A stretch of 64,000 bases of DNA from Lachnospiraceae bacterium. GTDB taxonomy: Bacteria; Bacillota; Clostridia; Lachnospirales; Lachnospiraceae. Shown in pieces: positions 38,834 to 58,521 of the stretch. Below the pieces are notes generated by a model. The model was not told the DNA's origin. It saw only the letters and a list, made by a program, of their open reading frames with translations, and made no database searches. The DNA lies in contig JAILKT010000060.1 of NCBI GenBank assembly GCA_024693545.1, positions 32,723 to 96,722 on the forward strand, in the 5' to 3' direction. The stretch's first letter is position 1. Every line of letters begins with the position of its first letter. Both the position numbers and the translations under genes were made by a program.

Positions 38834-39685
38834 TTATAGATTAAGATTAAGTAATGATCCTCCGACGGCCTCAAGTAATGATTTTGACCCAACTTTCTGC
38901 TCAACCCCCGGCTTGCCGAGCAGCTTAGTGAACGCATCATCCCAGTATGTATTTCCCATCACCATAACCTGGCCGCCTTCTTCACCCTCCGGCGAAGCAT
39001 TTGTCTGTCTCATGGAGATATCAACCACCGCCGCTATAGGATTTCCGCTTGGTGAAAACATGGTATATTGTGCATTCACATTCTCAATCTCTCCGAAGAA
39101 AACGACATCACCCATAATAAAAACCGCCTGTCTTGTCGCAAATGAATTGACGAGCGATACAAGACCGTCAACCGGAGTCTGAACCGAATATGTCGCAGCT
39201 ATTGCCATGACATCTTTTACAATTGCAGCAGGGGACAGGATTGCCTTGTCCTGCAGGAATGCTTCCGCATTATTAATATCGTAAAAATAAATTCTGAAAC
39301 TCATGGAAGTCTGAGCAGGAACCGATGCCATCGTAACCTGATTCATACCGACTTCGGGAGCACCCTGTCTTTGCATATACGATCCGACCTGTGAATTCAA
39401 ATATATGGTATCCGGATTATACTGAAATTCAAACAGATCCCATTTATCCTGGCTATCGACATAATTTCTGAGTGTCTTACCTCGCATCGGTCCGCCTGAC
39501 ATAAGCTGGCTGAGAAAAGCTGTCGCATCAGTTGCCGCCGATGCCATTGCCTTCAATTTACCGGCCTGCTCCATAAGACCACCGGAGAAATCAGGCTCGT
39601 CCAGTCTTCTCACGAGAAGTGACGCCTTAGTGGGACTTCCCAGTATGCTGTTTCCCAGATTGGATAATGCTCCGCCAATACTCAT
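38834..39685 (-). CDS. CIS tube-initiator-type protein (Afp7/Pvc7 N-domain-like), paralog B, no LysM
   Basis: FEFQYNPDTIYLNSQVG ... NVNAQYTMFSPSGNPIAAVVDISM are motifs of the CIS tube protein family. Confidence 0.7.
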   Translation of the reverse strand: MSIGGALSNLGNSILGSPTKASLLVRRLDEPDFSGGLMEQAGKLKAMASAATDATAFLSQLMSGGPMRGKTLRNYVDSQDKWDLFEFQYNPDTIYLNSQVGSYMQRQGAPEVGMNQVTMASVPAQTSMSFRIYFYDINNAEAFLQDKAILSPAAIVKDVMAIAATYSVQTPVDGLVSLVNSFATRQAVFIMGDVVFFGEIENVNAQYTMFSPSGNPIAAVVDISMRQTNASPEGEEGGQVMVMGNTYWDDAFTKLLGKPGVEQKVGSKSLLEAVGGSLLNLNL

Positions 39686-39723
39686 AATCGATACTCCTTA
39701 GCCTGTTTATGTTCTGTTACCGC

Positions 39724-40587
39724 TTAACCCAGATTGATCAACGAACCGGCCGCCTGTCCGACCGTAGAATTACTGATCACTTTTCCGAGTTCATCATTTA
39801 CAAACGCATCTCTATAACGGTCCTCCCACTGACCCAGGCATCCCTTTACAATCTTTGTGTCAGAGCACAGGATCGTCAAATTCACAACAGCCCTTAAAGG
39901 CTTCCCTGTAGGCGAAAACATAGTGTATTGAGCATTAACCCCGTTTATAAGACCGTGGTAGCTCATATCTGCCCATGAAAACATGATCTCCCTTGTATAA
40001 TCACTTCTAAGCACCGCTATCAGACCTTCTACCTGTGTCTGAACCGAAACCTCACCACCGGAAAAAAATGTCGCAAAAGCCGTTTTTGCAATTGATGTGG
40101 GCGCGAGACTCAGTTTATCCTGCAGGAATGCTTCCGAATTAACAACACGGTCAAATATCAACGGAATGGTCACAGTAATACGCGGATCAAGAGTTTGATA
40201 AGAGATACTTCCCATAGCTCCCTTTTCTTTGTCTTTTGTGGATCTTCCGACATTCGTAACCTGCGACATACCGCCGCCCTGTGCCTGTATCGTTATCGTG
40301 GAAGGATTGAACTGAACCTCAAACTGTTTCAGACACGCATCCTTCGGAAAAGGATTTTTCCCGTTCGCCAAAAGCTTTCTCGGATCAATGGGCATGGCGC
40401 TGAGCCCCGTTGAGACTGCATTTGAAATTGCCTTATCAAGCCCGGCGAGAGAAAAACCCTTCTTCGTCTTTATCTCTGTCGGCTTTCCCACTTCGGTTTT
40501 TTCAAACTTACGGGCATCTACGATCGTAATAACACCGAGCACCGGATTGCCGGTGACGCTGGCCAAAAGATTCGTTCCGATTCCCAT
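39724..40587 (-). CDS. CIS tube-initiator-type protein, paralog A, no LysM
   Basis: FEVQFNPSTITIQAQGG ... GVNAQYTMFSPTGKPLRAVVNLTI. Shares end motifs with the neighbouring paralog. Confidence 0.7.
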   Translation of the reverse strand: MGIGTNLLASVTGNPVLGVITIVDARKFEKTEVGKPTEIKTKKGFSLAGLDKAISNAVSTGLSAMPIDPRKLLANGKNPFPKDACLKQFEVQFNPSTITIQAQGGGMSQVTNVGRSTKDKEKGAMGSISYQTLDPRITVTIPLIFDRVVNSEAFLQDKLSLAPTSIAKTAFATFFSGGEVSVQTQVEGLIAVLRSDYTREIMFSWADMSYHGLINGVNAQYTMFSPTGKPLRAVVNLTILCSDTKIVKGCLGQWEDRYRDAFVNDELGKVISNSTVGQAAGSLINLG

Positions 40588-40636: not shown

Positions 40637-42916
40637 TCAGAAGCCCCTTCTCTTTCTTTCCGAGACAAGTTTTCTCTCAATCCTGTCGAATACCTTTTCG
40701 GAAATCTCATCCATATCTTCTCTGAATCTGTCCGAGATCATTCTGTTTACCTCGGTGGAACTTAGGATCTCGTTGTTTATCGTTGTCTGTTCCATAACAT
40801 TTGTCTTAGTTATATTGACATTTTCTATATTATTCTGAACTTCTTCATTTGTTCTTTTTATTGCTGTATTCTGTCTGTGAAGCTCTTCTATGATCTCCTG
40901 TGCTTCATCGAGATTTCTCTCCTGTTTATGTACAAGACTCACATTATCCGTATCATATTCAAACTTTGACCTTCTTGTATTACGACGTCTGACGGTACCC
41001 TGATCGGTAACTTCATCGATTATTTTTTCTGCGGTCTGTCTTACTCCGTCTCCATGCCCCGCCTCTTTTTCAGCATCTAACTCAAGATAGCGGATATCAG
41101 CGGCCAATCGTGCGGGATCGGAAGGTCTGATCTTCCCTTCGGCAATGGTTTTTACAGGATTCTCCATATATTCATGAACCGTCTCCATAATCTGCTTTGT
41201 TCTTTCGGACATAACGTTCATGGCAGCCGTTTCATATACCGATTTTGTTTTTTCGATTTCTTTTCCTTCTTTGAGATATTCAATCTCAAGCGGAGATTTT
41301 CCCGAAAGAATATCTTCCGCAGCGATCAACGCCTGCGATCTGTCCAGTCTTACCTCTCCCTTTATGCTTTTTTTAGTCTCCTCGGGCAGTCTGTTTGCGA
41401 GCTGCGTTATTCTTTCAAGATTCTGCTCATTTATTATATCAAGTGCCTGCTTATATGCCTTGATGTTATTTTCGTTTATCTGTGTCGAACTTTCATCGAT
41501 GCTTATATCGCCTTCCTGATCTGTATATGTGATATCCACATCGCTATCATAATATTCTTTGCTTCCCTCGTTACGGATATGCGTGCTTTCCGAATAATAA
41601 CTTCTGCCTCCTTCTTCGGTGACAGATGTATTATAAGGTCTCATATTCCGTACCGTATAAACGTCTCCTTCTTGCGGCTCCGAGTAACTTCTTGCGTCAA
41701 TATCAAGCCTGTTGTAGATATTCTCCGTGAATACCGGAGTCTGCTTTTTTACGGTTATGTCTCCGAGCTTCTCGATTATCTGCCTTGCGGCATCTATATA
41801 ATGACTGTCACCCTCTTCAAGAACAGTATCTCCCTCATAATATCCGTCCTCATGTATATAATGAACAAGCCTGGTAAGAAGCGAGACTTCCGTCGTTTTC
41901 TGTTCTTTTGAAAGTTCCAAAAGGTTCCTGTCATATACATATACGTTTTCGCCGTTATAAACTCTCTCTCTGATCCTCTCAATAGTGTCTTTTTCGCTCC
42001 CGAAGAAAGACCTCGAATAGTCAAACCATTCGTTTCTCTCTCCCTGAATACTGTTAGAATAAAGCCTGTATGCTTTATCAATATGATTAAGGAGAACAGC
42101 TGAGGATATAAGATTCGAAATATTGCTTTTTGTCGTGATCGTGTCCCCCGGGCCACCCTCTTCATAGATATTGTAATTTCTGTATGTAAGCGGTATCTGT
42201 TCATTTCGAACATAATTCCTGAACACAGACAGAAGGACATTTCGTGCAAATTTGTCCTCTCCGGCATTTTCAAGCTGTTCCGGTGAAACGGGACGATTAT
42301 TGTTTATTACAGTGTTTTTAATATTATAAAGTTCGGAGTATATTACCGCTGTTTCAAGCCTTTTAAATATTTCGTTGTACAGAGCGGGTTCATTCTCTTC
42401 TTTTTCGCGTTTTTCCTCCGTTTTCTTTTCGGCAGCCTTCTTCTTGTTTTCCTCTGCCACGGCCATTGTTACTGTACGAAGTTCTTGCACACTGTCGTTA
42501 TAAAGTTCAAGAAGTCTCGTGGTCGCATTATCCTCATTGATGGTCAAATTGACCTGACGAAGAAATTGCTTTACATCCGTAATTCCGAGTTTTCTGAGAA
42601 CATTTTCCACATATACGGTATCTCTGTACGTCGGTTTTACCGTTCCCGAAAACATGATCCTGTTGATCATGTTATTTATCACATCAAGCTTGATCTTTTG
42701 ATTGTTTGTAACCCTGTTTTCACTGATAAGATTTGTTACGGGACCCTCGTTATAGTAAATATCCGGTGAGGATGTTATCAGATGAAGAAGTTCTTCGGGC
42801 TCAAAATCCGCCCTCATAAGTTCGTATTCACCCATAATCTTTTCGCTCAGTGGGTTGCTTCTTCCGCAAATGGGGACAAGGCTCTTATATTCCATATTTG
42901 TCTTTATAGTAAGCAC
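40637..42916 (-). CDS. tape-measure-like (tail length determination) protein
   Basis: 759 aa, charged and apparently helix-rich, with no enzymatic motif. Assigned by position downstream of the chaperone and tube genes and upstream of the tube-initiator and hub genes. Confidence 0.5.
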   Translation of the reverse strand: MLTIKTNMEYKSLVPICGRSNPLSEKIMGEYELMRADFEPEELLHLITSSPDIYYNEGPVTNLISENRVTNNQKIKLDVINNMINRIMFSGTVKPTYRDTVYVENVLRKLGITDVKQFLRQVNLTINEDNATTRLLELYNDSVQELRTVTMAVAEENKKKAAEKKTEEKREKEENEPALYNEIFKRLETAVIYSELYNIKNTVINNNRPVSPEQLENAGEDKFARNVLLSVFRNYVRNEQIPLTYRNYNIYEEGGPGDTITTKSNISNLISSAVLLNHIDKAYRLYSNSIQGERNEWFDYSRSFFGSEKDTIERIRERVYNGENVYVYDRNLLELSKEQKTTEVSLLTRLVHYIHEDGYYEGDTVLEEGDSHYIDAARQIIEKLGDITVKKQTPVFTENIYNRLDIDARSYSEPQEGDVYTVRNMRPYNTSVTEEGGRSYYSESTHIRNEGSKEYYDSDVDITYTDQEGDISIDESSTQINENNIKAYKQALDIINEQNLERITQLANRLPEETKKSIKGEVRLDRSQALIAAEDILSGKSPLEIEYLKEGKEIEKTKSVYETAAMNVMSERTKQIMETVHEYMENPVKTIAEGKIRPSDPARLAADIRYLELDAEKEAGHGDGVRQTAEKIIDEVTDQGTVRRRNTRRSKFEYDTDNVSLVHKQERNLDEAQEIIEELHRQNTAIKRTNEEVQNNIENVNITKTNVMEQTTINNEILSSTEVNRMISDRFREDMDEISEKVFDRIERKLVSERKRRGF

Positions 42917-42946: not shown

Positions 42947-44302
42947 TTAATCCGTTATTTTCTTCACCGGCTGCCACACTCTTGCTTTAGGTCTCGGTGT
43001 ATCGTTAGGTGCTTTTGCAGCCCTCACGTTTTTCTTATTTGCGGTATATATTGTTGTTTCCTTTCCGTCTATTTTTTCAGTGGCAGAATTTATAAATTCA
43101 TATTTCTCGGCCTTCATGTCAGCCTTTCTGACTTCATTTGCATTTACAATTGCACTTCCCTTAACTCCGGTTGTTGCACCTTTCGCGTTATTAATAAATG
43201 TTCCATCCTTTGAAAACTTATAATCATTTGCGGCAAGCGCTTCCAGTTCCTCTTTTGTTTTTTCCTTCAAACCATGTTTATCCGCCCTCAGGTTGTTCTT
43301 ATTTGCGGTATATATTGTTGTTTCCTTTCCGTCTATTGTTTCAGTTTTAGAATTTACAAATTCATATTTCTCGGCCTTCATGCCAGCCTTTCTGACTTCC
43401 CCTGAATTTACAATTGCCCTTCCCTTAACTCCGGTTGTTGCATCTTTCACGTTATTAATAAACGTTCCATTCCTTGAAAACTTATAATCATTTGCGGCAG
43501 CCGCTTCCATTTCCTTTTTTGTTTTTTCCTTCAAACCATGTTTATCCGCCCTCAGGTTGTTCTTATTTGCGGTATATATTGTTGTTTCCTTTCCGTCTAT
43601 TGTTTTAGTTTCAGAATTTACAAATTCATATTTCTCGGCCTTCATGCCAGCCTTTCTGACTTCCCCTGAATTTACAATTGCCCTTCCCTTAACTCCGGTT
43701 GTTGCATCTTTCTCGTTATTAATAAACGTTCCATTTTCTTTAAATGTATATTCAGGATCTGCGATTCCTCCACCGGGAAGGTCAAAGACAAGCATCTCGC
43801 GATATGCTATAGTTACAGATTCAGTGAGAAGACCACTCTTTTCAGCGTTCAAACTTCCAAACTCTTTACTTATGACAGTACACCCGGTAAACGTGTATGT
43901 TCTTGAGATCACATCGAAATCATTTCCGTATCGACTTACAAACAGAAGGACAGGAAGGATCATTTCGGCTCCGAGGGCCAAAGGATCCACAAGATACGAA
44001 GGCGTAACATATCGCTCGACCGTAAAAGTGAAAGGTTTTGAAATCGGCTTTCTCTTCATATGGACGTAATCGTTGAGACCACCTTCTTTGATATATTCAT
44101 ATTCATTTTCTTTTGTAAATGCACTCACGGACTTACACGGAATATCCATGAGACCCTCGACACGAAGCATAAAATTAAAATTCACAAGCGGATCAAGACC
44201 TATATTTTGAACAAAGGTATTTCCCCCCGGTGCACTAATATTACCCGAAGTATATCCGGATCTCTCCGTAACACTTATTGTGTTTGTCGAATCACCATCC
44301 AT
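42947..44302 (-). CDS. second tube paralog (T4 gp19 / Afp5-like N-domain) fused to three 88-aa C-terminal repeats
   Basis: The N-domain NFNFMLRVEGLMDIPCKSVSAFTKENEYEYIKEGG..HMKRKPISKPFTFTVERYV follows the tube-family pattern. The ATG at 44302 after AGAAGGAGC is preferred over the GTG at 44320. Confidence 0.78.
   Translation of the reverse strand: MDGDSTNTISVTERSGYTSGNISAPGGNTFVQNIGLDPLVNFNFMLRVEGLMDIPCKSVSAFTKENEYEYIKEGGLNDYVHMKRKPISKPFTFTVERYVTPSYLVDPLALGAEMILPVLLFVSRYGNDFDVISRTYTFTGCTVISKEFGSLNAEKSGLLTESVTIAYREMLVFDLPGGGIADPEYTFKENGTFINNEKDATTGVKGRAIVNSGEVRKAGMKAEKYEFVNSETKTIDGKETTIYTANKNNLRADKHGLKEKTKKEMEAAAANDYKFSRNGTFINNVKDATTGVKGRAIVNSGEVRKAGMKAEKYEFVNSKTETIDGKETTIYTANKNNLRADKHGLKEKTKEELEALAANDYKFSKDGTFINNAKGATTGVKGSAIVNANEVRKADMKAEKYEFINSATEKIDGKETTIYTANKKNVRAAKAPNDTPRPKARVWQPVKKITD
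42962..43753. repeat. in-frame 264-nt tandem repeat, 3 copies
   Basis: Copies lie at 43490-43753, 43226-43489 and 42962-43225. The two upper copies are nearly identical at the DNA level (the same 57-nt string occurs at 43264 and 43528). The third copy is more diverged. Confidence 0.9.
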
Positions 44303-44316
44303 CTTGAAGCTCCTTC

Positions 44317-44478
44317 TCACTTAAAATCAACGATACTCTTTTCTTTGCTCTTGCTCTCTGAGGGATTCAGACTTTTGTTGATCGCCGATATCTCATTGCA
44401 CCATCTGCGCCGACTTTTATGATCGAGCGCCATCACCTCATCATTACTCCAGTGAAAATAATACGAGATAAAGGACAT
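44317..44478 (-). CDS. unannotated 53-codon ORF in the -1 frame of the chaperone gene (probable E-prime frameshift extension, or a separate small protein)
   Basis: Translation is MSFISYYFHWSNDEVMALDHKSRRRWCNEISAINKSLNPSESKSKEKSIVDFK. The frame stays open upstream across the chaperone stop codon. Only a poorly spaced SD-like AGGGA lies 2 nt before the ATG. Confidence 0.6.
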   Translation of the reverse strand: MSFISYYFHWSNDEVMALDHKSRRRWCNEISAINKSLNPSESKSKEKSIVDFK

Positions 44479-44510
44479 TTCCCTGTATAAGTCATCTTTA
44501 GGGTACAGCT

Positions 44511-44873
44511 TTATCCCTCTCGAGTAAAATTTACCGGTACCTCAAAAGTCTTGCCACAATCGGGACATACAACCGTCATAACAGGCAGTTCAACATCATT
44601 TATCTTCTGATACATATCCTGCAGAAAAGCAAGGTCTGCCGTAAAAAGCCTTTCTATTACCGTTGCTGAGACAGCAGCTATTCCTTCGATTTCGGTTACT
44701 ACCTTACCAAGGATCGCAATCGTCAGATATGACGGATTCGAAAGAACTCTGGGGTCTCTCGTTGCATTTATTTCATCGCCTGCAGTAGCAAGCCGCATTT
44801 TTCCGAATTTATGTACTTCGCCCGCATTGTCAATATATCCCTTGGGCAATTCAAAATCATAAACAGTCTGCAT
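44511..44873 (-). CDS. tail assembly chaperone, P2 gpE-like, with a C-terminal CPDCG zinc-ribbon-like end
   Basis: DFELPKGYIDNAGEVHKFGKMRLATAGDEINA...LTIAILGKVVTEIEGI...IERLFTADLAFLQDMYQKIN resembles the gpE-type chaperone. It lies directly after the tube gene. Confidence 0.65.
   Translation of the reverse strand: MQTVYDFELPKGYIDNAGEVHKFGKMRLATAGDEINATRDPRVLSNPSYLTIAILGKVVTEIEGIAAVSATVIERLFTADLAFLQDMYQKINDVELPVMTVVCPDCGKTFEVPVNFTREG
44526..44532 (-). promoter_or_regulatory. candidate -1 programmed ribosomal frameshift slippery heptamer A_AAT_TTT
   Basis: In the zero frame GT[A AAT TTT] ACT, 4 codons before the chaperone stop. It lies inside the only window (after the last -1-frame TGA) from which the -1 frame reads through into the 53-codon ORF. 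Confidence 0.5.
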
Positions 44874-44900
44874 TTTCTACCTCCCCTTCATACCGCCTCA

Positions 44901-44995: not shown

Positions 44996-45511
44996 TCAGT
45001 TAGGAATTACAAGTTCTTCATAAGCAAGTTCTACCGACTCGATAGCAACTTCCGATGTTGACGCATTAAGGTCAGCTCCCGAGTACTTAGCTACCCATGC
45101 ATTGGTGAGAAGCCATACTCTGGTTCCCGTTACGGCGGTTACAGCCTGATTAGGTGCTCCGCCATTTATATCAATAAGTTCGATCTGAACATTATTTCTG
45201 GGCATCTGACCTCTCACTTCCGAAACACATTCCTGTATCCATGTCTTGAACGCACTGTCAAGCGTATAACCGAATTTAAGTGTTACATTTCCGTGCTTAA
45301 CAAGTCCGGGTATTTTCACGGGTGCAAGACTGTGAGCATTTCCCTGACGGAATTCGATTACGTCAACAGATGCTTCAACTCCCGTTACTTCACTAAATGC
45401 AGCCGTTCCCTGTATCCCGTTTACCGATACAAGAAAGTTCATTTTGGTTAAGGGATAAGAAAGGCCATTCCCATTTTCATATGTTGTTGCAGTGGGTTGT
45501 GATTCTGCCAT
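44996..45511 (-). CDS. major tail tube protein (T4 gp19 / Afp1-like)
   Basis: MNFLVSVNGIQGTAAFSEVTGVEASVDVIEFRQGN...KIPGLVKHGNVTLKFG is the tube family signature. Confidence 0.88.
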   Translation of the reverse strand: MAESQPTATTYENGNGLSYPLTKMNFLVSVNGIQGTAAFSEVTGVEASVDVIEFRQGNAHSLAPVKIPGLVKHGNVTLKFGYTLDSAFKTWIQECVSEVRGQMPRNNVQIELIDINGGAPNQAVTAVTGTRVWLLTNAWVAKYSGADLNASTSEVAIESVELAYEELVIPN

Positions 45512-49015: not shown

Positions 49016-51688
49016 TCAGGTGGGAAGAGACGCTGTCACAATACTGTCGTAAAGGGCCTCTGCAAGCGTTAATATTTCCTCGTCCGCACATACGGCCAGT
49101 AAATTGTCCGTGAGGTAATAAGCTTCCCAACCGAATGTAGTTTTGCAATAATCTTCTTCAACAAATACATCACCTCTGAAGACAGTCTGTGTTGCCAGCT
49201 CATCCTCACTGTTTTCGGGTCGGTCAACAACAGTGCTGAATTGCCTGAACTCATAAAAATCTTTGTCTCCCCTTGTGAGGGTAACCCTGTGGACGCTGTT
49301 ATCGAAGAGATATCTGTATCCGACACAAACGGAAAGTGTATATAACGGGATATATTCCGCTATACCTTTGTATTGTTCGTAAAAGTATATATTTCCCTGT
49401 CTCATGAATCTGCCGGCAAGTTCAGCGACAAGATCCTTCACAGCTTTGTTGCCTGTAAAAATCGCATATTTGTCAAGAGCGATCACCGCACTCGCCTGAG
49501 CTTTGTCCGGAAGGCTGCTAAGCGGTCCTCCGAGCAGATTTTCAAGAAGTGATAAAAGCGCATCCGGATCAATATTTCCTTCCAAAAGCACCGATGTGTC
49601 GGCGATCAGACCGGAAACATCATCAAGAATACCCGAAAGCTGATCTCCAAGACCGTTACCGCTTCCGTCTCCAAGCTCACTGCCCGTTCCGTCTCCTGTT
49701 CCGTCTCCTGTTCCATCCCCGGTTCCGTCCCCGGTTCCATCCCCGGTTCCGTCCCCGGTTCCGTCTCCTGTTCCGTCTCCCGAAGAATCTCCCTTCGAAG
49801 CATCTGCGGCATTTTCAGCATCTATCTTTATTGCCAATGCATCGGAAAGATCTCCGAGTGCATCAGTAACGGCATTGGGATACAAACCCGAAAGCGCACT
49901 CAGCGCATTAATTGCATCCTTAAGTCCACTAACATCACCTGAGTTAAGGCTATCAAGCGCATCACTCAGCGCATCATTTACGCTGCTTGTATCGCCTCCA
50001 AGAGCATCTATTCTGCTGTCAAGTTCCGCAATCTTGGCATCGGCTTTATTTGCTCCGTTAAGATCGTTTTTGTCATTACACGTGAGTTTTTCAAGGATTG
50101 CCTCTTCTTTTTCGGTCAAAAGACCTTCAAGTTCCGAACCACCCATTGAGGCAAGAACTTCCGCCTTCTTCTTTTCAAGCCATTCCTTATATTCCTGTAT
50201 GCTCTGAAGTGCAACCGGTCTGAATTCATCGTCCTGAGGTTTACGTTTGATAACCTCAACACCGTCTATAAGCTCTCCGAGGAACTCTACCGCCACTTCG
50301 GGCTCTTCCCTATTGACAGCCGATTCGATAAAGAACTGTAATTCTCCTCTTTCGACATTTGCCTCGTTGATCTGGTCTTTAAGGAGCTTGTTCAAACGGG
50401 CGACAGTCGTGTTTTCGTTTCTTGCTTCTTTCTTATACTGAGCCGATGTTCCTGCCCCGAGCTCATCCTGATATCTCTTCATGGAAGTGGGTATCAGATC
50501 GCTTGTGAGCATATCGTCCTCTGCCACAAGATCGACACCGTCCGGACTTTCTTCAATATTACTGAGGATCACAAGCTTTTTTACAGCTGCTTCCGCGTCC
50601 TTGTCTTTTCCCGCCGATGCCGAATCACTCATTTTCTTCATGTTTTCGCCCTGTCTTATCGAAAGGACCGTTGTTCCGCCACCGATAATATTACCGCTGT
50701 TTGTTGCTATTGTATCAGAAACACTTGCAGTTGAATTGGTTACCGCCGTGACAAGCATCTCCGTTGTAATATATCTGTATTCGTCGCTGTCTTCTTCCTC
50801 TTCACCATTTTCCTCATCATCTGCCGGATCAGAAGGCGTAAATTCATAGTCACAAAGTCTGAGTGCATCCTCAGGCGAAACATATCCGACTCTGCTCTTA
50901 CCGTTAAAAGCATTTGAAAGCAGCTCCACATACGGCGAAATATTGTTCATTATATATACTTCACGCTGCGAATTTATGCTTTTCTGAGCCTTCTGTATAA
51001 AAGCGAGCTCATTTGCCGGAGCATCGTTTGCCGCCTGTGCCTCATAAAACCTCTGAAGCGAATCGAGTGCTTCATCACATGCATCCGTATCCGGACTGTG
51101 CGCAGCCGGGCCGGCATAATCGTAAAACGATTTTATAAAGTTGTAGTTATATTCATCAAGATCCTGAAGGTCACCCTTTTCGACAAAATTATCATACTGA
51201 TTTTTGATCGGCTGAAGTTCAACCCTCTTCATCAGATTGTAAGGATCGTCGGTATCAAAAATACTCACCGCCTGTCCGCTCAAAAGATCATATGTGATCT
51301 TATCCTTCTTTGTATGCCAGCGCAGGAACAAGCCTTCTATCTCCGATGCATCCACCGGAACACCGCCGGTCGTTATGTCTTCAACCGATGAAGCCGATGT
51401 AATGTCGTACCACTGACCTCCCGAAAGCTCGGACTTATAATACCTTTTGTCATTTCCCGAATCCGCTATCGTACTTTCGGCTTTTTTATATATTTCATCG
51501 TTAAGTGCCTTGATATGAATAAGGTGGGTTCCGATCAGTACCGTTCCCGGCTCGACATCGGCATCTTTTACGTGTGTATGCTCTTTTTCATCAAATAAAG
51601 CACGTAACGTAATCGGAACCGAGATCAAGATAACTGCAAGGATCAGCACGCCGACGGCGATCAAAGGAACTCTTTTTTTCATTTTCAC
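49016..51688 (-). CDS. large N-terminally anchored extracytoplasmic protein with acidic and coiled regions and a (GDGT)n repeat
   Basis: 890 aa with signal-anchor VPLIAVGVLILAVILISVPITL. It overlaps the upstream gene by 4 nt (ATGA-type) and ends 22 nt before the DUF4255 gene. Confidence 0.6.
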   Translation of the reverse strand: MKMKKRVPLIAVGVLILAVILISVPITLRALFDEKEHTHVKDADVEPGTVLIGTHLIHIKALNDEIYKKAESTIADSGNDKRYYKSELSGGQWYDITSASSVEDITTGGVPVDASEIEGLFLRWHTKKDKITYDLLSGQAVSIFDTDDPYNLMKRVELQPIKNQYDNFVEKGDLQDLDEYNYNFIKSFYDYAGPAAHSPDTDACDEALDSLQRFYEAQAANDAPANELAFIQKAQKSINSQREVYIMNNISPYVELLSNAFNGKSRVGYVSPEDALRLCDYEFTPSDPADDEENGEEEEDSDEYRYITTEMLVTAVTNSTASVSDTIATNSGNIIGGGTTVLSIRQGENMKKMSDSASAGKDKDAEAAVKKLVILSNIEESPDGVDLVAEDDMLTSDLIPTSMKRYQDELGAGTSAQYKKEARNENTTVARLNKLLKDQINEANVERGELQFFIESAVNREEPEVAVEFLGELIDGVEVIKRKPQDDEFRPVALQSIQEYKEWLEKKKAEVLASMGGSELEGLLTEKEEAILEKLTCNDKNDLNGANKADAKIAELDSRIDALGGDTSSVNDALSDALDSLNSGDVSGLKDAINALSALSGLYPNAVTDALGDLSDALAIKIDAENAADASKGDSSGDGTGDGTGDGTGDGTGDGTGDGTGDGTGDGTGSELGDGSGNGLGDQLSGILDDVSGLIADTSVLLEGNIDPDALLSLLENLLGGPLSSLPDKAQASAVIALDKYAIFTGNKAVKDLVAELAGRFMRQGNIYFYEQYKGIAEYIPLYTLSVCVGYRYLFDNSVHRVTLTRGDKDFYEFRQFSTVVDRPENSEDELATQTVFRGDVFVEEDYCKTTFGWEAYYLTDNLLAVCADEEILTLAEALYDSIVTASLPT
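49683..49781. repeat. in-frame 12-nt microsatellite, about 8 copies, encoding (GDGT)8
   Basis: CCGTTCCGTCTCCTGTTCCGTCTCC... with synonymous variation between units. Confidence 0.85.
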
Positions 51689-53817
51689 TGCGTGTCACCT
51701 CCCTCCTCAACAGTCTTAACCGTCATAGTATCAGGATCGGGCCTGCCGCTTATCACTTCGTTGCCGTCCTTATCGAGAACAACAACCGAAAGGTTGCCGA
51801 TCGATCCCTGTAAAAGGGACAGATACGTCATTTCTTTATCGTTTTCCGTTTCACTTCCGCCCAGGATCGAACCTTCCGAGGTCACAAGTTTATAGCTTGC
51901 GGCCCCTTCTACCGATTCATCGGCCGTAAACTTAAACTCTACCGTTCCGCTCGTTTCGTTTTCCTTTAACGTATATGTTCCGATAGTTTTTACCGTATCC
52001 TCTTTCTTCTTCACCACATATCCGGTGATAATGTCCACAGGTCCGCTGTAAAGTGAAGGATTTATGGTTTGATCGCATATCATCACGTCACTGTCGTCAA
52101 AGAATCTCAGGAATACAGATTCACTGCCGTCAAGAATCAGACCGAGATGAACTATCGTATCATCGATTTCGGCCGAACCTATCTTTGTATTATCAACCCA
52201 TAATTCAAATCTTGAGATACTGACCTCAAAATCCTCGGGAATATGAAGGCCCAGTTCAAATACGTTTGCCTCCGGTCGTACCATTATATAATACGTAACA
52301 CCGGAAACGGTTTCAGCGACCAGATAACTGTCTCCGCCCACTGTATCGACCGCATTTATGCCGTCTCCCATGAGCAGCGCCGTGATCGCACCGCATGTGG
52401 TTCTGTCAAGTGACACAAGCGCCTGTGTATAAGCATCAAGATCATTCGAAACGTTAAGCTGCGTGCTGTCAAAATCCTCCTGCAGCGCCGTGTACTCTTC
52501 AAATGTAAGTTCTCCCATCTGATTCCTGATAAGCGCCTGTTCGAGCTCGCGTCCCTTTTTCTCTATCTCTTTACTTCCGCTGCGATATGTCTTTTCAAGG
52601 GCCTTTACATTTTCAAATGCATCCTTGACCTGTGATCTTATGTCTTCCTCTACACCCTCCTGGTCAAGCCTTGCTCCCTGATAATCAAGTATCGCATTGT
52701 AGAGCGCATACGGCTCATCTTCAATATACCTTGAACCGGCCGTCGCTCCCTTAAACCAAAGTTTCGGTATCTTTATGAAAAGGATCTTGATCTTTCCTTC
52801 CCATTTTTCATCGATTTTTTTGATCAGCTTGTCAAATGCGAGCTTAAGCGCAAGTCCGTCGACCTCTTCACCGTTTCTGGCCGTACTTACAAACGACTCT
52901 ACAAGCGACATATGATCACCGTACTTTGTTTTCATCTGATTGTAATATTGATCGAGGGTAAGCCTCGCCAGCGATGTGTTTGATCTTGACTCAAACATAC
53001 TCTGCGAGTTTGCAAGCGTGTACTCAGTTATATCCGATAGGTTTGCTCTTTCAATGATCGCATTCATATACGGATTAACAAAAACGAATCCCGACCTGAC
53101 ATCCACACCGATCATCTTCTTAAGCTTTTCCTTAGTATTCATAAAAGTTGTCTCATCGGTGCTTATGCTATCTTCCAGCTTACTTATCGAATTCTTTATC
53201 GCATCGACATCGGTCTGACTTGCGAGTCCGAGTAACAGTCTGCCTTCGTTTTTTGTAAGTGTCTTTTTCTTTGTCTCGAGCAGATTTTTGTTAAATGATA
53301 TTTTTTCCTGTAATGTATATACCTTCACATAAAGATTGGTCGCGCTTTCGTATATGGAATATATGTCATCGTTCAGTTTGTGCTGCAGATTCGTAATCTC
53401 GGCCTGGATGGAGATCGGTTTGAAGTTAAAATCAAACTCCTCGGTAAATCCCGGATCCGTGGGGAAATTAAAGCTCAAAAGGGGTGTCCACGAAAATGTG
53501 GAGAGTTTCTTCTTTTTCGCAGCAATCCTCGCGATCGCATCTGAATAATTTGCCATTTTTGTGATAATTTTAACCTTGGTTGTCTTATATTGAGCCGACT
53601 TCGAAAGTGCAAGTTTTTTTACTTCGCTCAGATAAATGGTTTTGGGCTTTTTGTTCAGCCCTCCCACTATGTTTTTTATGTTGCTCAATATATCGCCCGA
53701 TGAACTGAAACCGTTTGCAGCGCCTAAAGCCGTGGAAGGACTTCCGATCAGATCGACGAAACATACAACGGCGATCAGACATACGCTGACCACAATCCGC
53801 AAAAATCTATGCTTCAT
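51685..53817 (-). CDS. secreted TolC/outer-membrane-efflux-protein-like two-repeat helical protein with an extra beta-rich C-terminal domain of about 250 aa
   Basis: Signal peptide MKHRFLRIVVSVCLIAVVCFVDLIGSPSTALGA. There are two OEP-like repeat starts (YLSEVKKLALSKSAQYKTTKVKI; LSDITEYTLANSQSMFESRSN). The start is moved to the ATG at 53817 after GGAAGGAGGA. Confidence 0.5.
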   Translation of the reverse strand: MKHRFLRIVVSVCLIAVVCFVDLIGSPSTALGAANGFSSSGDILSNIKNIVGGLNKKPKTIYLSEVKKLALSKSAQYKTTKVKIITKMANYSDAIARIAAKKKKLSTFSWTPLLSFNFPTDPGFTEEFDFNFKPISIQAEITNLQHKLNDDIYSIYESATNLYVKVYTLQEKISFNKNLLETKKKTLTKNEGRLLLGLASQTDVDAIKNSISKLEDSISTDETTFMNTKEKLKKMIGVDVRSGFVFVNPYMNAIIERANLSDITEYTLANSQSMFESRSNTSLARLTLDQYYNQMKTKYGDHMSLVESFVSTARNGEEVDGLALKLAFDKLIKKIDEKWEGKIKILFIKIPKLWFKGATAGSRYIEDEPYALYNAILDYQGARLDQEGVEEDIRSQVKDAFENVKALEKTYRSGSKEIEKKGRELEQALIRNQMGELTFEEYTALQEDFDSTQLNVSNDLDAYTQALVSLDRTTCGAITALLMGDGINAVDTVGGDSYLVAETVSGVTYYIMVRPEANVFELGLHIPEDFEVSISRFELWVDNTKIGSAEIDDTIVHLGLILDGSESVFLRFFDDSDVMICDQTINPSLYSGPVDIITGYVVKKKEDTVKTIGTYTLKENETSGTVEFKFTADESVEGAASYKLVTSEGSILGGSETENDKEMTYLSLLQGSIGNLSVVVLDKDGNEVISGRPDPDTMTVKTVEEGGDTQ

Positions 53818-53978
53818 GTCATCCTCCTTCCTTCGTCTGCCTGCAGGCGAGCCAAACTGTTTTCTTAACAATTATACGAGCATCGTCCCGGCAATCCTCG
53901 CAAAACGTCAAAAATACGGCCGTTAAATTCGTTAGCGGCATTTCGGCGCGTTTGCACGGGTCAAAGCACCTTTCGGCG

Positions 53979-55193
53979 TCATTCCTTTGTTATCTGATAC
54001 ATTTCAAATCCACCCAGTTTTTCCTTACAGAAGAACGAGTACATAAGTCCCTCATAGCGATAGGTGTACATGTATAAGGTGTAATCCCTGTCATATGTCT
54101 CTACGTCGTAGGCATCATCAAAGAGCTGCGAGGTTGTCATTTCAACTCTTCCGTTATAGGCGTTGCCTTTATCATTAAGTTCATTGACGCCCACAGCCTC
54201 TGCAAGCATTAATCTCGTGTTACCTTCGTAATACGGCTCACCGAGTGCGCTTGTCAGTCCGTTTATCGTTGTTATCTCCATTCCGTCCGCATAGAACTTG
54301 TTTTCAAAAACAAAGACGCTTCTGATGTTGATCGAATCATCAACTGTATCACTGCTTAGGTTGCCCTCATACATCGCATTTATATCGGGCATCGTTACGA
54401 TAAAATCATTCGCTCCCCGGAAAATGCGGGTTCTTCCCGTGTAAAGTTCCCTCGCTTCCTGTGTCGATCTGCCGAGGAAATCCGAATAGACTATTCTGTC
54501 TCTCGAAAACAGGCCGCTGTAGATCTGTTTTCCTGACGGATCAAAGAGTACTCCTTCTCCTTCCTTAAGGCCGCGTGCAAATCCCCCGACATATTCACGG
54601 CTGCCGCTCGCCCTCATCAGTGAACCTGCTCCTTCATAAATATTGTCCATAAAAGAGCCTTCATATTTCATCTGACCGTTCTTATAATACGACTTACCCT
54701 CGCCGTTATATTTGTTATTTGAAAACTCTCCGGAATAAACAAGGTTACCTTCTTTATCGTAAAGAAGTCCTTCACCCTTGCATACTCCCTCTTCGACAGT
54801 TCCGACATATGCCACATAACCTGAATCTGCCTTGATCTTTACTTTATCGGATACAAATCTGAGTGCGAGCGAATCATAGCTGTATATCGGAAGTCCGTCG
54901 GCTTCGTCCGAAGCCTGAAAAACCGGATTTACGACAAGCAGATAAAATACACTTAAAACCCCCAGTACGATCAACACCGCATATACAAGCTTCCTGCTGA
55001 CAAGCCAGGCCAGGAAACCGTAATAGTCTTTACTGTGTCTGGGCTTAACAGAGAGTGTCTCGGTAAAGAATCCGCGAATCGCAGTAATCAGCTTTGAAAG
55101 GATATACTGCTTCGTCGTCCATCTCTTTACAGCGGTCCAGATCTTGACGAATTTAGCTTTTATAGTACTGAGCAAAGTTGACAGCAGTTGCAT
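53979..55193 (-). CDS. membrane-anchored MORN-repeat protein
   Basis: TM helix LVYAVLIVLGVLSVFYLLVV followed by about 5 MORN-type repeats (Y.G....G...G.G). Confidence 0.75.
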   Translation of the reverse strand: MQLLSTLLSTIKAKFVKIWTAVKRWTTKQYILSKLITAIRGFFTETLSVKPRHSKDYYGFLAWLVSRKLVYAVLIVLGVLSVFYLLVVNPVFQASDEADGLPIYSYDSLALRFVSDKVKIKADSGYVAYVGTVEEGVCKGEGLLYDKEGNLVYSGEFSNNKYNGEGKSYYKNGQMKYEGSFMDNIYEGAGSLMRASGSREYVGGFARGLKEGEGVLFDPSGKQIYSGLFSRDRIVYSDFLGRSTQEARELYTGRTRIFRGANDFIVTMPDINAMYEGNLSSDTVDDSINIRSVFVFENKFYADGMEITTINGLTSALGEPYYEGNTRLMLAEAVGVNELNDKGNAYNGRVEMTTSQLFDDAYDVETYDRDYTLYMYTYRYEGLMYSFFCKEKLGGFEMYQITKE

Positions 55194-55213
55194 TATCCCC
55201 TATTTTCCTCCTC

Positions 55214-57583
55214 TTATTCCGAAAGAAGACCGTATCCAAACTTTTCAACGGTTCCAACGTCAAGCATTTTTTCACACTTGAACAGATACCACCTTGCAAC
55301 GAGATCTTCGGGACATTCCTTAACCGCCTCGGCAAAAAGGTTTCTCGCAAGATAAAAATCTTTAGCGTAATAAAGATCAAGCGCTTTTTTGAAAATCATT
55401 ACAGTTTCCGTTTTTCTGTTTCTTTCTTCTACAGGTACTGCATCGAGGATTTCATACAGACGAACGGTTCCCGAATTATCGGGGAGTTCGAGATATCCCA
55501 AATATCTGCTTGTATAGCTTCCTTCGTCCGCATTCAGCGCTTCTTCCGATGCAACGACACGAAGGCCGAGTTCTGAAAGTTTCGGAACAAAAACCGATAT
55601 AAGATCGAGCTGAAGAGAATTAATACATGCGTAATTCTGATCTTCCGAACCTGTGATACCGTATTCATATTCAGTCTTATGAAGGAATATCAGCGATCTT
55701 CTTCCCTGTGAAAGTTCCGATTTTCGTATTGCTTCACTCGTTTTGACAGCAAAAGAGAGCGTACCGTTCGCCCCGTCGGCAAATATCACCCTTGATGAGC
55801 ACATTGTCGAGCTGTCACTGACAAGAATTCCCTCATGCTCATTTTTATACTTGCAGATGATCTCTATGTAACGGCTCATTATGTCCGTATATTCATTTTT
55901 GTTTCTTATGAAAGGTCTGGCTATTCTGATCAGCGCAACAGTTCCGTTGACGGATCCCTTGTCGCCGAGCCTGACATCCGTAAGCGAATCCTTACCGAAA
56001 AGCTTTTCTATATTATGCGGTGCAAATCTTCCCACCATGGCAAGGGTCTGATTTCTGAGATAGTTTTTCTTGCCCATTCCCTTTGAAAGCTCCGCTGCCG
56101 CATTCCACATACCGTCAAAATCCATGGACGCAATCTTCGGCTTAACCACCTCTGTCTGCTCTCCGCTTATAACACGTCTGAGTGTTTTTGTGATTATTTT
56201 GAGCTCGAAGGCACGTCCGAAATTGATAAAAATGATCAAGGCAAGGGCTATGCCCCACACTATGACCATATGAAGAATGAACATAGATATATCAAAGACA
56301 CTGTCAGACATTATGTCCTCATAGCGTACCAATGCCGAAATAAACACCCTTGAACCCGCCTCGTCCGTAACAGGTGCTGTTACCATAAGATACTTCTTTC
56401 CCTTGATGACGGTTTCGCCCCACACCGGTCCGTTTGATGAATGAGCTCCCAATATACATTTATCGGCAGCATCGCCCCATTTATCTGAAAGCCACTCTCC
56501 GTAAGGGAAGTTCATTGAGACGTTCACATACGCACGGCTGTTGTTTATCGACAAAATGCAGATATCTTCTATACTTTCGGTAGTTTCCCACCAGCACTCT
56601 CTGACCGTCTTATAGGCGTTGTCATAACGTTCTGTTCCTATAGAGCCGTCATAATCGTTAAAACTCTGTCCATAAATATCGAGCACATTTTCAGTCTGTT
56701 TTACTCTTTCTTCAACTCTCGATTCGTTAACGGGTTCCGTCACCAGATAGATCGACGCGGCAAGACATGCCGTTAATGCGATCATAAAACCATATACTTT
56801 AAGCCACAGGTAGTTTCTTTTGAATACAACACTTCGGAAAAAGAATGCGATAATAAAGATGACTGCCACCATAATAAGAACATTACGGGCAACTGTAGGG
56901 AATCCCATTGTAACGCCTACCAATCCGGCGTTCTCGGGGACTTCGGTTTTTTCAACGATCGAATTCTCATATCCGGGGGTTCTTGAGCCGTCCGACATCA
57001 GAGTTTCGAGCTTACCGTTTATGAAGTTGGCATCAAGGAACCTTACTTCACCCTCTGCATCTTCTCTGAGCAGATTTACAGGTTCATTGTCCCGGCCTGA
57101 CATCATATAAACAGCGGCAGTCGTTCCCTGATCCTCAACGGTGACAATAGCGAGATCTCCGTTATTCACTCCAAAATCCGTAACAACAGCATCTCCCTTA
57201 AAGGATATCGTATTTTCGGTACGTTCGGTCAGTTCCTCATTCCATGCGCATATTCTTACACCCAACGGTATTCTGACCGCCATATAGACTTTATTGGAAA
57301 CACAGGCCAGACCGACAACTCTTCCTCCGTTCAGCATACTGCCGTTGCTGTCGGTTGCCGACGCGATCAGTTTTTTAGCATCATTCAGCTTGTAGATACC
57401 CGAATTTGACCGCGATTCAAAATATACATAGTTGTTTCCCGAACTGTCGGTTGTCCCATACATGACGTTTTCTTCCGCCGGAGCATAAACGCGGCACTGA
57501 TCAAAGGTAACAACGATAGTCGTTACCAAAGTCACCGCTATTAATACTATCATACAGATAACGCCAAAAATCCTGGATTTCAA
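55214..57583 (-). CDS. four-TM sensor protein with two extracytoplasmic domains and a degenerate class III nucleotidyl-cyclase homology domain plus a TPR-like tail
   Basis: TTG start after AGGAGGAGG. The CHD-like segment is GTVALIRIARPF...GILVSDSS...FLHKTEYEYGITGSEDQNYACINSLQLDLISVF...LRVVASEEA...YLGYLELPDNSGTVRLYEIL. The first metal-binding Asp position reads Arg. Confidence 0.55.
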   Translation of the reverse strand: MKSRIFGVICMIVLIAVTLVTTIVVTFDQCRVYAPAEENVMYGTTDSSGNNYVYFESRSNSGIYKLNDAKKLIASATDSNGSMLNGGRVVGLACVSNKVYMAVRIPLGVRICAWNEELTERTENTISFKGDAVVTDFGVNNGDLAIVTVEDQGTTAAVYMMSGRDNEPVNLLREDAEGEVRFLDANFINGKLETLMSDGSRTPGYENSIVEKTEVPENAGLVGVTMGFPTVARNVLIMVAVIFIIAFFFRSVVFKRNYLWLKVYGFMIALTACLAASIYLVTEPVNESRVEERVKQTENVLDIYGQSFNDYDGSIGTERYDNAYKTVRECWWETTESIEDICILSINNSRAYVNVSMNFPYGEWLSDKWGDAADKCILGAHSSNGPVWGETVIKGKKYLMVTAPVTDEAGSRVFISALVRYEDIMSDSVFDISMFILHMVIVWGIALALIIFINFGRAFELKIITKTLRRVISGEQTEVVKPKIASMDFDGMWNAAAELSKGMGKKNYLRNQTLAMVGRFAPHNIEKLFGKDSLTDVRLGDKGSVNGTVALIRIARPFIRNKNEYTDIMSRYIEIICKYKNEHEGILVSDSSTMCSSRVIFADGANGTLSFAVKTSEAIRKSELSQGRRSLIFLHKTEYEYGITGSEDQNYACINSLQLDLISVFVPKLSELGLRVVASEEALNADEGSYTSRYLGYLELPDNSGTVRLYEILDAVPVEERNRKTETVMIFKKALDLYYAKDFYLARNLFAEAVKECPEDLVARWYLFKCEKMLDVGTVEKFGYGLLSE

Positions 57584-57653
57584 TGGAAGTCCTCCTCCTT
57601 AGAAACGATCTTGTTTCCGATTTCTCACCTTATTCTCTGCCGAACGGGATTCT

Positions 57654-58487
57654 TTATTGGAGCATCGATTCCGTTCCGATCTCTTTGAACGGATTTCTGA
57701 ACAGCCTGAAGAATGAGATATCCCCAACTATCAATTGAGTCAGTAACATCAGAAGGACTATCACGGCAAGCACGCCGCAAAGAATTAACAATATTTTAAA
57801 GAACCTCCCTATATTACGTGACAAAAAAGCCTTTGCCCTTTTAAGTATCCCCGGCTTTGCTTCCGCTTCCGTTGTTATCTTTACATCATGATAAATTTCA
57901 GAAAAATGCCTGTATACTTTTTTAGGTACCTTTCTCTTCATGAGTTCATAGCTCATGGCCTTCGATTGAGCTTTGGGCTCAATAATGTCATAAACTATCT
58001 GCGCGCATTTGTTAGCGCAATCACGTTCCCCTATTGTTGTATCATACGCAGAAAAATCAAGTCCGTAACCAAAGTTTATCGAGCAATCCTTTCCGAGATC
58101 TATCTGATCCTGATCGAGGATCAGATAAAGCAACGGGTACGGTATGTCAGCCCTCATGCATTCCATTATAAGGTTTACACAAATTTTTTCGCACTCTTCG
58201 CTGGAAAAACGTGTTCCGATGTAAAACTGTGACAACCTTCTCTCCGAATTATACGGAAAAAGTATCAAAAAGCCGTCCGGATGCGGTGCCGTTGCAAGAA
58301 ATTTCTTTCCCTCTTTTTCATAGCTTTCTATAATTTCCTTTGCAATGCCGTGATCCTTTATCGTCACCAGTGTGTAATAGGTATCCGATGAAGCATTGAT
58401 ATCCTGACAAATACCGACGTTGTCCGCATCACACCTGAACACCTCTCTTATGCAGTTAAGTGACATGTTTCCAATTTGATAGATCAT
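57654..58487 (-). CDS. hypothetical C-terminally anchored protein
   Basis: 277 aa with a single TM helix near the C-terminus (FFKILLILCGVLAVIVLLMLLTQLIV). RBS AAGGGGAG. Confidence 0.45.
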   Translation of the reverse strand: MIYQIGNMSLNCIREVFRCDADNVGICQDINASSDTYYTLVTIKDHGIAKEIIESYEKEGKKFLATAPHPDGFLILFPYNSERRLSQFYIGTRFSSEECEKICVNLIMECMRADIPYPLLYLILDQDQIDLGKDCSINFGYGLDFSAYDTTIGERDCANKCAQIVYDIIEPKAQSKAMSYELMKRKVPKKVYRHFSEIYHDVKITTEAEAKPGILKRAKAFLSRNIGRFFKILLILCGVLAVIVLLMLLTQLIVGDISFFRLFRNPFKEIGTESMLQ

Positions 58488-58521
58488 GTACTCTCCCCTT
58501 TAGAAACTACTAAATCAAGTA

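Follow-up and report, generated by a model that had tools for sequence, protein, structure and literature searches.

The chaperone gene and its overlapping reading frame

The window analysed here is a 64,000-nt stretch of contig JAILKT010000060.1 (assembly GCA_024693545.1, positions 32,723 to 96,722 of the forward strand) from a Lachnospiraceae bacterium, and it carries the locus of an extracellular contractile injection system (eCIS), in which all genes of the region under study lie on the minus strand. Downstream of the tail tube gene stands a gene for a tail assembly chaperone (TAC), and an unannotated 53-codon ORF follows it in the -1 frame. A sequence-only reading of the window had proposed that this ORF is joined to the chaperone by a programmed -1 frameshift of the kind that produces gpE and gpE+E' in phage P2. 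The ORF was found in the -1 frame as described, and all of the coordinates given in that reading were correct (Table 1). From the sequence comparisons presented below, the TAC gene very probably yields two proteins through a programmed -1 ribosomal shift, as lambda G/GT and P2 E/E+E' do.

The -1 frame is open over 74 codons, from its last TGA to the TGA at 44319..44317, and runs through the zero-frame stop of the chaperone, as had been noted. A productive -1 shift is confined to a 10-codon window bounded by the last -1-frame TGA (44544..44542) and the zero-frame TAA (44513..44511). Within this interval lies the canonical slippery heptamer A_AAT_TTT, whose phase relative to the TAC frame we confirmed. 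A slip at this heptamer is predicted to produce a protein of the form ...EVPVNF-YSRGIKLYPKDDLYREMSF..., the translation of which comes to 185 aa, in line with the earlier estimate of about that length. The ATG of the 53-codon ORF, 33 nt downstream of the TAC stop, corresponds to Met residue 133 of the predicted fusion.

We then asked how often such a site occurs by chance. Among the 28 long ORFs of the window, heptamers of the form XXXYYYZ were in phase at 72 of 12,293 codon positions, which corresponds to a chance of approximately 5.7% for a 10-codon window. Only one of these 72, the A_AAT_TTT of the TAC gene, was followed by at least 50 open codons in the -1 frame. Given this chance rate, the window alone was no more than suggestive, and conservation in relatives was the decisive evidence.

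A scan using one genome per species yielded 80 close loci from 80 species, with TACs 72-93% identical to that of the window. The hosts were Lachnospiraceae, Butyrivibrio, Eubacterium and Pseudoflavonifractor, cultured isolates among them. Carriers include Butyrivibrio sp. AE2015, Su6 and AE3009, Lachnospiraceae bacterium AB2028 and Pseudoflavonifractor phocaeensis An507. The sequence-only reading had looked to homologous loci for conservation of the heptamer and of the open -1 frame, and both were kept in all 80, each locus having ..T-AAATTTT-A.. in the same phase. The heptamer was identical in all 81 loci (the window and its 80 relatives), including its three wobble positions, and was invariably preceded by an NTA codon (GTA, ATA, CTA or TTA, encoding Val, Ile or Leu). 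Together with its flanking T and A, it was invariant in 76/76 distinct close sequences. In comparison, the commonest base had a mean frequency of 0.55 over the 120 zero-frame wobble columns of the TAC gene. Apart from the three heptamer positions, the only ones of these columns that did not vary belonged to two Met codons and to a single site in the overlap, at a distance of 15 nt from the heptamer's first base.

The 31-nt productive window was shared with most of the 80 close relatives, and the -1 frame encoded a conserved peptide, KFY.(R/G)G..LYP..(L/M)Y.E(M/L).F(I/L)(S/A)YYFHW. Variable alignment columns 5' of the heptamer were the third positions of zero-frame codons, and those just past the overlap were the third positions of -1-frame codons, the switch to -1-frame codon position 3 occurring approximately 30 nt before the ATG of the 53-codon ORF. 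This pattern indicates that the zero frame and the -1 frame are both under purifying selection. In sum, the proposed frameshift agreed with a heptamer and an open -1 frame in 80/80 close loci and, as described below, with a -1-frame extension in 77/78 distant ones.

Table 1. Features of the TAC region in window coordinates
Feature	Position	Strand	Basis or remark
Tail tube gene, directly upstream in the direction of transcription	44996..45511	minus	Pfam Phage_T4_gp19, E 1.4e-30
Shine-Dalgarno sequence (SD) GGAGG of the TAC gene, 6 nt 5' of the ATG at 44873	44880..44884	minus	Read in the sequence
TAC ORF, zero frame, 120 aa + TAA	44511..44873	minus	ORF list and translation; short product
Last -1-frame stop TGA	44542..44544	minus	Overlaps zero-frame TTT GAG; GAG is ten codons before the stop
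Slippery heptamer A_AAT_TTT, proposed -1 shift site	44526..44532	minus	X_XXY_YYZ phase with the TAC frame
Zero-frame stop TAA of TAC	44511..44513	minus	
-1-frame extension, 69 codons + TGA (44319..44317), DUF6760 (P2 E'-like) domain	44317..44526	minus	
53-codon ATG ORF, -1 frame, C-terminal three quarters of the extension	44317..44478	minus	
Composite predicted 185-aa frameshift product	join(44873..44526, 44526..44317)	minus	
Cis5-like tube-adaptor gene, three C-terminal repeats	42947..44302	minus	Phage_T4_gp19 E 2.8e-5, CIS5_fam E 6e-3
759-aa charged-residue-rich protein, presumed tape measure	40637..42916	minus	Position, size and composition only

Identity of the two halves and their distant relatives

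The first half of the predicted fusion resembled known tail assembly chaperones. It matched phrog_508, 'tail assembly chaperone', with an E-value of 2.2e-7, its close homologues are named 'phage tail assembly protein' at NCBI, and its family profile aligned to Mu gp41 over 76 columns (hhalign E 4.3e-4). Among 30 members of the family, two matched Gp41_Mu and one matched Phage_TAC_7, with best E-values of 4.5e-4 and 1.8e-3, respectively, both of which are sub-threshold. The AlphaFold2 model of the 185-aa product had a mean pLDDT of 83, and values above 90 over most of residues 1-116. When the TAC model was searched with Foldseek, the best matches were T4-like 'baseplate hub assembly' proteins (E 9e-8 to 2e-4), Mu FS-gp41 was found at an E-value of 5.6e-3, and the best PDB match was YqbN (3klu, probability 0.8). 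By profile and predicted fold, the nearest kin of the N-terminal domain are thus Mu gp41 and the T4-like gp26/gp51 proteins (PF12322).

A single CxxC motif (C103 and C106; 44556-44568, minus strand) lies just 5' of the slip site and was invariant in the 30-sequence alignment of the family. A search of PDB sequences with the TAC returned only spurious zinc-finger matches to this motif and was disregarded. A second Cys pair was absent, and in the DUF6760 alignment H36 was invariant and H25 nearly so; a possible metal site could be confined to the long product or could span subunits.

The second half was identified by Pfam as DUF6760 (PF20546). The profile search with the 53-aa sequence, which had been suggested for this ORF, gave 53.7 bits (E 2.2e-14) over profile positions 15-59 when the ORF was read from its ATG, while the -1 frame read from the slip site gave 67.8 bits (E 8.8e-19) over positions 2-59; both exceed the gathering threshold of 27 bits. 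The higher score and longer profile coverage place the beginning of the domain 4 codons past the heptamer and 12 codons before the ATG, so that the homology reaches 5' of the ATG to the slip site. Neither half had a match in NCBIfam.

The likeness to P2 that had been proposed extended to this domain. The GenBank record of P2 annotates gpE+E' with a -1 shift, and its E' domain, which we translated, is Pfam Phage_P2_GpE (PF06528). A 135-sequence DUF6760 alignment matched the single E' sequence with an hhalign probability of 85% (E 6.3e-6), and comparison of the DUF6760 and GpE/E' profiles gave 91.9% (E 6.9e-7) over 48 columns, the two families having in common the motif DDL..(D/E)(V/M)A.I.FHW(P/S)..E(L/V)..(M/L)....W. 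The 69-aa extension did not match PF06528 by hmmscan at E-values of up to 10. Since the link to E' was seen only when profiles were compared, we regard DUF6760 as a remote homologue of the P2 E' domain, not as a member of PF06528. In the AlphaFold2 model, the extension was helical (helices at residues 126-142 and 152-169), and a linker of low confidence (residues 118-124) stood just past the shift point at 116/117. We also considered DUF6760 as a counterpart of the Cis6/Afp6 spike plug and rejected it, given the lack of a match among PDB chains and the different position and architecture.

In more distant relatives, the two-frame arrangement was kept while the slip sequence varied. A protein search found 1,160 relatives at E <= 0.001 among 1.84 billion representative proteins, and a metagenome scan with a 10-sequence alignment of chaperones approximately 44% identical to the window TAC (their sources include a Pyrinomonadaceae genome and a cluster with a Thermomicrobiales genome among its members) yielded 80 loci. 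DUF6760 was detected at 78 of them, the contigs of the remaining two ending at the TAC, and in 77 of these 78 it lay in the -1 frame directly abutting the TAC end. The slip motif was an in-phase run of 5-9 G in 76 of the 77 (G_GGG_GAA, G_GGG_GGA or G_GGG_GGG), starting at zero-frame codon position 3, and C_CCG_GGA in the other.

A further alignment scan of IMG/VR gave 19 contigs, 15 of which had the -1 architecture with an intact slippery site. An E'-like domain in the -1 frame followed A_AAT_TTT in two contigs (L177 and L180) and T_TTT_TTC in three (L178, L179 and L182), all with members 26-41% identical to the search query P0144, and followed C_CCG_GGG in L172, which was 53% identical to P0144. 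All of these motifs were in phase. Taken together, well over a hundred related loci almost certainly share a conserved -1 frameshift that their annotation lacks.

In one eCIS locus (L183, JGI contig Ga0671646_0000351), two adjacent paralogues at positions 5668-6480 take the place of the frameshift. The first encodes a short TAC of 108 aa, which matched the family profile with an hhalign E-value of 5e-43, and the second encodes P0207, a 159-aa in-frame fusion of TAC and DUF6760, to the N-terminal part of which the 108-aa protein is 45% identical. The CxxC motif is absent from both. The gene order in this contig is sheath, three tube paralogues, the 108-aa ORF, P0207, Pvc16_N, AAA ATPase and eCIS_core. 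This two-gene encoding is independent evidence that the role of DUF6760 is that of a C-terminal chaperone extension and that both forms are wanted.

Other apparent fusions were treated with caution. In metagenome locus L083 (2840-2900), an apparent in-frame fusion has one G fewer in the G run and one C fewer in TACCCC than its relatives, and the upstream ORF is not a TAC; we discounted it as a natural fusion, and it may represent either a fusion hard-wired through two deletions or homopolymer errors of assembly. The high-GC 'fusions' P0165, P0193 and P0132 look like gene-caller read-through across frames and were set aside. Separately, P0121, P0123, P0125, P0129 and others were found to be proteins of 240-280 aa with two chaperone domains in tandem in one polypeptide, the motif ...CPKCQHKF(D/E)V... 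occurring twice in P0121, once per domain.

Weighing the proposed frameshift

Several points weigh against a ribosomal shift at the A_AAT_TTT heptamer of a TAC gene. The shift is deduced from nucleotide and protein comparisons, and we know of no measurement of the efficiency of A_AAU_UUU slippage in Firmicutes. The window TAC had no significant Pfam hit (including PF10109 Phage_TAC_7, PF23746 Gp41_Mu and PF12322 T4_baseplate), the family profile showed no similarity to P2 gpE by profile comparison, and the first half was assigned as a TAC from sub-threshold or moderate scores. In addition, IMG/VR contig L174 encodes a clear TAC and has no DUF6760 in any frame within approximately 1 kb past the TAC stop, which makes it a possible exception to the rule. 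The TACs of L174, L175 and L176 (E about 1e-50) all end in ..ATG GAT TTT AAG GGA TAG; the contigs of L175 and L176 end at or just past the TAC stop and only L174 counts as an absence. Furthermore, a second possible -1 site, G_GGA, lies beside the TAA (approximately 44517..44511) and would give a nearly identical product.

No conserved stimulatory RNA was found 3' of the heptamer in the alignment consensus of 76 sequences either. The consensus fold was a 5-bp hairpin of -0.62 kcal/mol, with no covariation or compensatory change, and single-sequence folds downstream of the heptamer gave several alternatives. The sequence-only reading had suggested pairing between CGAGA..TAAAG and CTTTA..TCTCG segments downstream of the site. 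These segments can indeed pair in the window, but the helix had no comparative support: across the 76 distinct relatives it was no better than in shuffled sequences (189/500 of which reached it), and its outer pairs were broken in 51-55 of the 76. As no conserved downstream structure was detectable, we make no claim on a stimulator. An SD-like GAGGT is located 6 nt 5' of the heptamer, where it is inseparable from the conserved Glu-Val codons.

The alternative that survives best, although we consider it improbable, keeps the -1 shift and moves it to the second site, where a P-site tRNA-Gly on G_GGA would slip with TAA in the A site (...NFTREG-IKLYP...). In most loci of the distant clade, an in-phase G run precedes the stop by 0-5 nt. 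The close clade has largely kept GGAGGG, with G14, G16 and G17 invariant, and the -1 reading R/G-G-I/L appears, by our own reading, to match the GG[IMV] of the distant clade. However, the last base of the Gly codon is variable (A in 44%, also T and C), back-pairing would be poor in a subclade with ATC GGG GAA TAA, and the G_GGA site is missing from some close relatives while the heptamer is kept by all. A downstream shift would also leave the invariance of the heptamer and its flanks in the 76 distinct sequences unexplained. Given that the heptamer is fixed while G_GGA is variable, and unusable in a subclade, we hold, with moderate confidence, that the shift occurs at the heptamer.

We consider it very unlikely that the 53-codon ORF is instead a separate small gene, started at the ATG at 44478 either de novo or by re-initiation, with the heptamer incidental. 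This ATG is present in 77 of the 81 close loci, and gene callers and NCBI label such ORFs 'DUF6760 family protein'. The SD-like sequence of the ATG had already been described as badly spaced, and we found an SD pairing of -1.9 kcal/mol there in the window, a value equal to the median over the 81 loci. This is weaker than for the average ATG in these loci (median -2.5 kcal/mol), the corresponding values being -12.5 kcal/mol for the TAC start in the window (median -8.7 over the 81 loci) and a median of -7.0 kcal/mol for the next gene. The Met codon is replaced by TTA in three close loci and by TTG in one, and aligns with Val in the distant clade (EEVAY). In the window, there is no ATG, GTG or TTG between the -1-frame TGA and the ATG of the 53-codon ORF, and hence none before the domain start, and no start codon precedes the domain in 32 of the 37 metagenome loci with a -1 window of 45 nt or less.

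The nucleotides before the ATG behave as coding sequence. At -1-frame position 3, the mean frequency of the commonest base was 0.56 from the zero-frame stop to the ATG and 0.54 past the ATG; for positions 1 and 2, the means were 0.85 and 0.83, respectively. The 16 codons 5' of the ATG are therefore under the same protein-coding constraint as those after it, and they are part of the Pfam domain. A separate gene would also be at odds with the in-frame fusion of the domain to the TAC in L183 and would leave the invariant wobble bases of the heptamer unexplained. A homologue encoding the small protein as a separate ORF behind a good ribosome-binding site, which the sequence-only reading had named as evidence for an independent gene, was found at none of the compared loci. 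We conclude that the ATG at 44478 is an internal Met codon of the fusion and not a start codon, and that the ORF is no independent gene.

Transcriptional slippage, in which RNA polymerase would insert an extra base at A3T4 or, in the relatives, at the G runs, is highly improbable. The slip motifs are indeed short homopolymer runs, with 5-9 G in the distant clade. However, productive transcriptional slippage in bacteria typically takes 9 or more A or T, and three A followed by four T are too short a run. The exact X_XXY_YYZ phase in 81/81 close and 76/77 metagenome loci also counts against polymerase slippage, because phase matters only for the re-pairing of tRNAs. Least credible of all is a mutational or assembly frameshift that disrupted a former single TAC-DUF6760 ORF, for which the in-frame versions could be cited (P0207, and L083, possibly an assembly error), but which is contradicted by the recurrence of the -1 layout with an intact slip site across the genomes of 80 species as well as 77 metagenome and 15 IMG/VR contigs, from many assemblies, and by purifying selection on both frames.

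Under the preferred reading of a programmed -1 ribosomal shift at the heptamer, the majority of ribosomes would translate 120 codons and stop at TAA to release the short chaperone. A minority, low and fixed in frequency, would most likely slip back by one base on A_AAU_UUU as tRNA-Asn re-pairs on AAA and tRNA-Phe on UUU, and would read 69 further codons in the -1 frame to give the 185-aa protein, composed of the chaperone, a flexible linker and the helical DUF6760 domain. If the analogy with lambda G/GT (PMC5009743) holds, the tape measure, probably the 759-aa product of 42916..40637, would be covered by many copies of the short form, and the few copies of the long form would use their extra domain to recruit subunits of the tube or its initiator. 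Tube polymerisation around the tape measure would follow, at a stoichiometry set by how often ribosomes slip.

The closest parallel is P2 gpE/gpE+E'. The order of sheath, tube and chaperone, with the tape measure further downstream, is the same, a short product is likewise read in the zero frame, a -1 shift within its last few codons yields a long one that is extended by approximately 55-70 aa, and the two extensions are homologous, with the (I/V)xFHW(P/S)xxE...W motif in common. The slip site of P2 (in a Phage_TAC_7 and Phage_P2_GpE arrangement) is T_TTT_TTG as against A_AAT_TTT in the window, and the T_TTT_TTC of L178, L179 and L182 is close to it. Unlike P2, the N-terminal domain of the window protein resembles Mu gp41 and the T4-type chaperones and has a CxxC end in most of the aligned relatives, a Cis5-like gene separates the chaperone from the tape measure, and the host element is an eCIS that has no capsid and carries a Pvc16 cap and an AAA+ ATPase.

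Lambda gpG/gpGT, with a -1 shift at G_GGA_AAG, follows the same logic of two products, made in a fixed ratio, from overlapping frames between the tube and tape-measure genes. In this class of systems, tail assembly requires both proteins, and the finished particle contains neither. The mechanism was worked out in lambda, whose G protein attaches to the tape measure and whose T domain attaches to the tube protein (PMC5009743). The lambda tail is non-contractile, and we assign roles to the window products only by analogy with it, claiming no sequence similarity. A conserved architecture with interchangeable slip sequences is the defining signature of the tail-chaperone frameshift of phages (Xu, Hendrix and Duda 2004, cited in PMC5009743).

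For Mu, whose gp41 is among the nearest kin of the N-terminal domain, the GenBank record annotates a -2 shift, as opposed to the -1 shift of the window. T4-like phages, to go by the title of a 2022 paper, reportedly use a mechanism other than frameshifting. In L182 (8049-9000 of a 54-kb IMG/VR contig), a 262-aa member of PF12322 T4_baseplate (E 1e-14) has T_TTT_TTC close to its end, and the -1 frame then encodes an E'/DUF6760-like domain, ..FNFHWSRREIYNL... On sequence grounds, this locus appears to link the T4-type chaperones to the same frameshift module. Cis6/Afp6/Alg6 is likewise a small protein encoded near cis5 in eCIS operons, and is a structural trimer inside the spike (PMC8894136, PMC8894135). 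In contrast to Cis6, DUF6760 precedes cis5, is joined to the chaperone and had no match in PDB chains, which should include the CIS models. Lineage II eCIS have been reported to be without afp6 (PMC6899500).

The injection system locus and its significance

The proposal that the chaperone belongs to a non-phage injection system agreed with the gene content. The eCIS genes of the window encode Pvc16_N, a DUF4280 (PAAR-like) protein, the sheath, the gp19 tube, the chaperone pair, the Cis5-like protein, the 759-aa protein, two CIS_tube proteins, Phage_base_V, GPW_gp25, Baseplate_J, Tail_P2_I and the AAA ATPase. No head genes (capsid, portal or terminase) were present among the 28 long ORFs scanned in the window. 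By its gene content, the locus is a non-phage, Afp/PVC-like eCIS of the lineage with a Pvc16 cap and an AAA+ ATPase.

A phage origin of the fusion was considered and rejected: the fusion had no tblastn match in 50,697 GenBank phage records, a scan of IMG/VR for close relatives with DUF6760 found nothing, and the one of the 19 IMG/VR contigs checked in detail (L177) was an eCIS. Markers of such systems (eCIS_core or Pvc16_N) were present in L108, L177 and L183, the last of which also had an AAA ATPase.

In the window, the TAC gene stands after the tube gene and before the gene of the presumed tape measure, with the Cis5-like gene interposed, and the SD of the Cis5-like gene (44315..44310, read in the sequence) abuts the stop codon of the extension. 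The 759-aa protein had no Pfam or NCBIfam match; from its position, size and composition we presume it to be the tape measure and the expected client of the TAC. Both family scores of the Cis5-like protein (Phage_T4_gp19 and CIS5_fam) fall under the curated cut-offs. Following a tube-like N-terminal domain, this protein contains three near-identical tandem repeats of approximately 88 aa (42947-43900, minus strand; ..KYEFVNSETKTIDGKETTIYTANKNNLRADKHGLKEKTK..GTFINN.KDATTGVKGRAIVNSGEVRKAGMKAE..), which is unusual in a tube-initiator protein.

Other features of the locus were also observed, all on the minus strand. Two CIS_tube (Cis7-like) paralogues, 283 and 287 aa long, are encoded one after the other at 38834-40587. 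The operon segment 29067-29881, flanked by the baseplate genes and the AAA ATPase gene, encodes a STAS-domain protein together with an anti-sigma-factor-type kinase (HATPase_c_2), a pair that suggests partner-switching regulation of the eCIS. Upstream of the cap gene, the region 49016-60321 encodes familyless proteins of 890, 789 and 599 aa, an OEP-like protein and a MORN-repeat protein, which are possible cargo or accessory genes; a MORN-repeat protein adjoins Pvc16_N in the L177 eCIS contig too.

The tail-chaperone frameshift is classical in phages, and we found no report of it for an eCIS in the literature searched. The eCIS literature covered by our search, which was incomplete, contained neither 'frameshift' nor 'tail assembly chaperone', and 'DUF6760' was not found in the literature searched; earlier notice elsewhere is possible in both cases. 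For Gram-positive and Streptomyces eCIS, a typical tape measure is said to be missing, and a chaperone is unmentioned (PMC10066040, PMC6899500). Public annotation keeps the two ORFs apart or omits the second, and the 185-aa protein is absent from it: the fusion query retrieved 2,306 protein clusters, all 120 among the matches listed being TAC alone, and the DUF6760 query retrieved 240 called DUF6760 ORFs.

The frameshift gives DUF6760 an assigned function, as the counterpart of the P2 E' domain, and extends the tail-chaperone frameshift from viruses to domesticated tail-like machines. Such systems are being engineered for protein delivery, and how they assemble and how their length is controlled is understood only in part; the TAC-DUF6760 pair provides a testable handle on the assembly of tube and tape measure. 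In refactored operons or heterologous expression, the long form would be lost if the overlap were recoded or split.

Read jointly, the results are open to a wider interpretation that we advance tentatively, as somewhat short of an even call. The TAC-DUF6760 frameshift protein may be a near-universal and essential assembly factor of a large group of eCIS without Afp6 and a recognisable Afp14, in which DUF6760 would dock the chaperone-coated tape measure onto the tube initiator. Given its persistence in capsid-less cellular operons, where genome size is under no pressure, the frameshift would be kept for stoichiometry and not for coding space, and the T4-, Mu- and P2-type chaperones would be joined via one ancestral E' module. 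If this is true, the persistence of the frameshift spans Firmicutes, Acidobacteriota and Chloroflexota-type loci, with gene duplication taking its place in at least one lineage.

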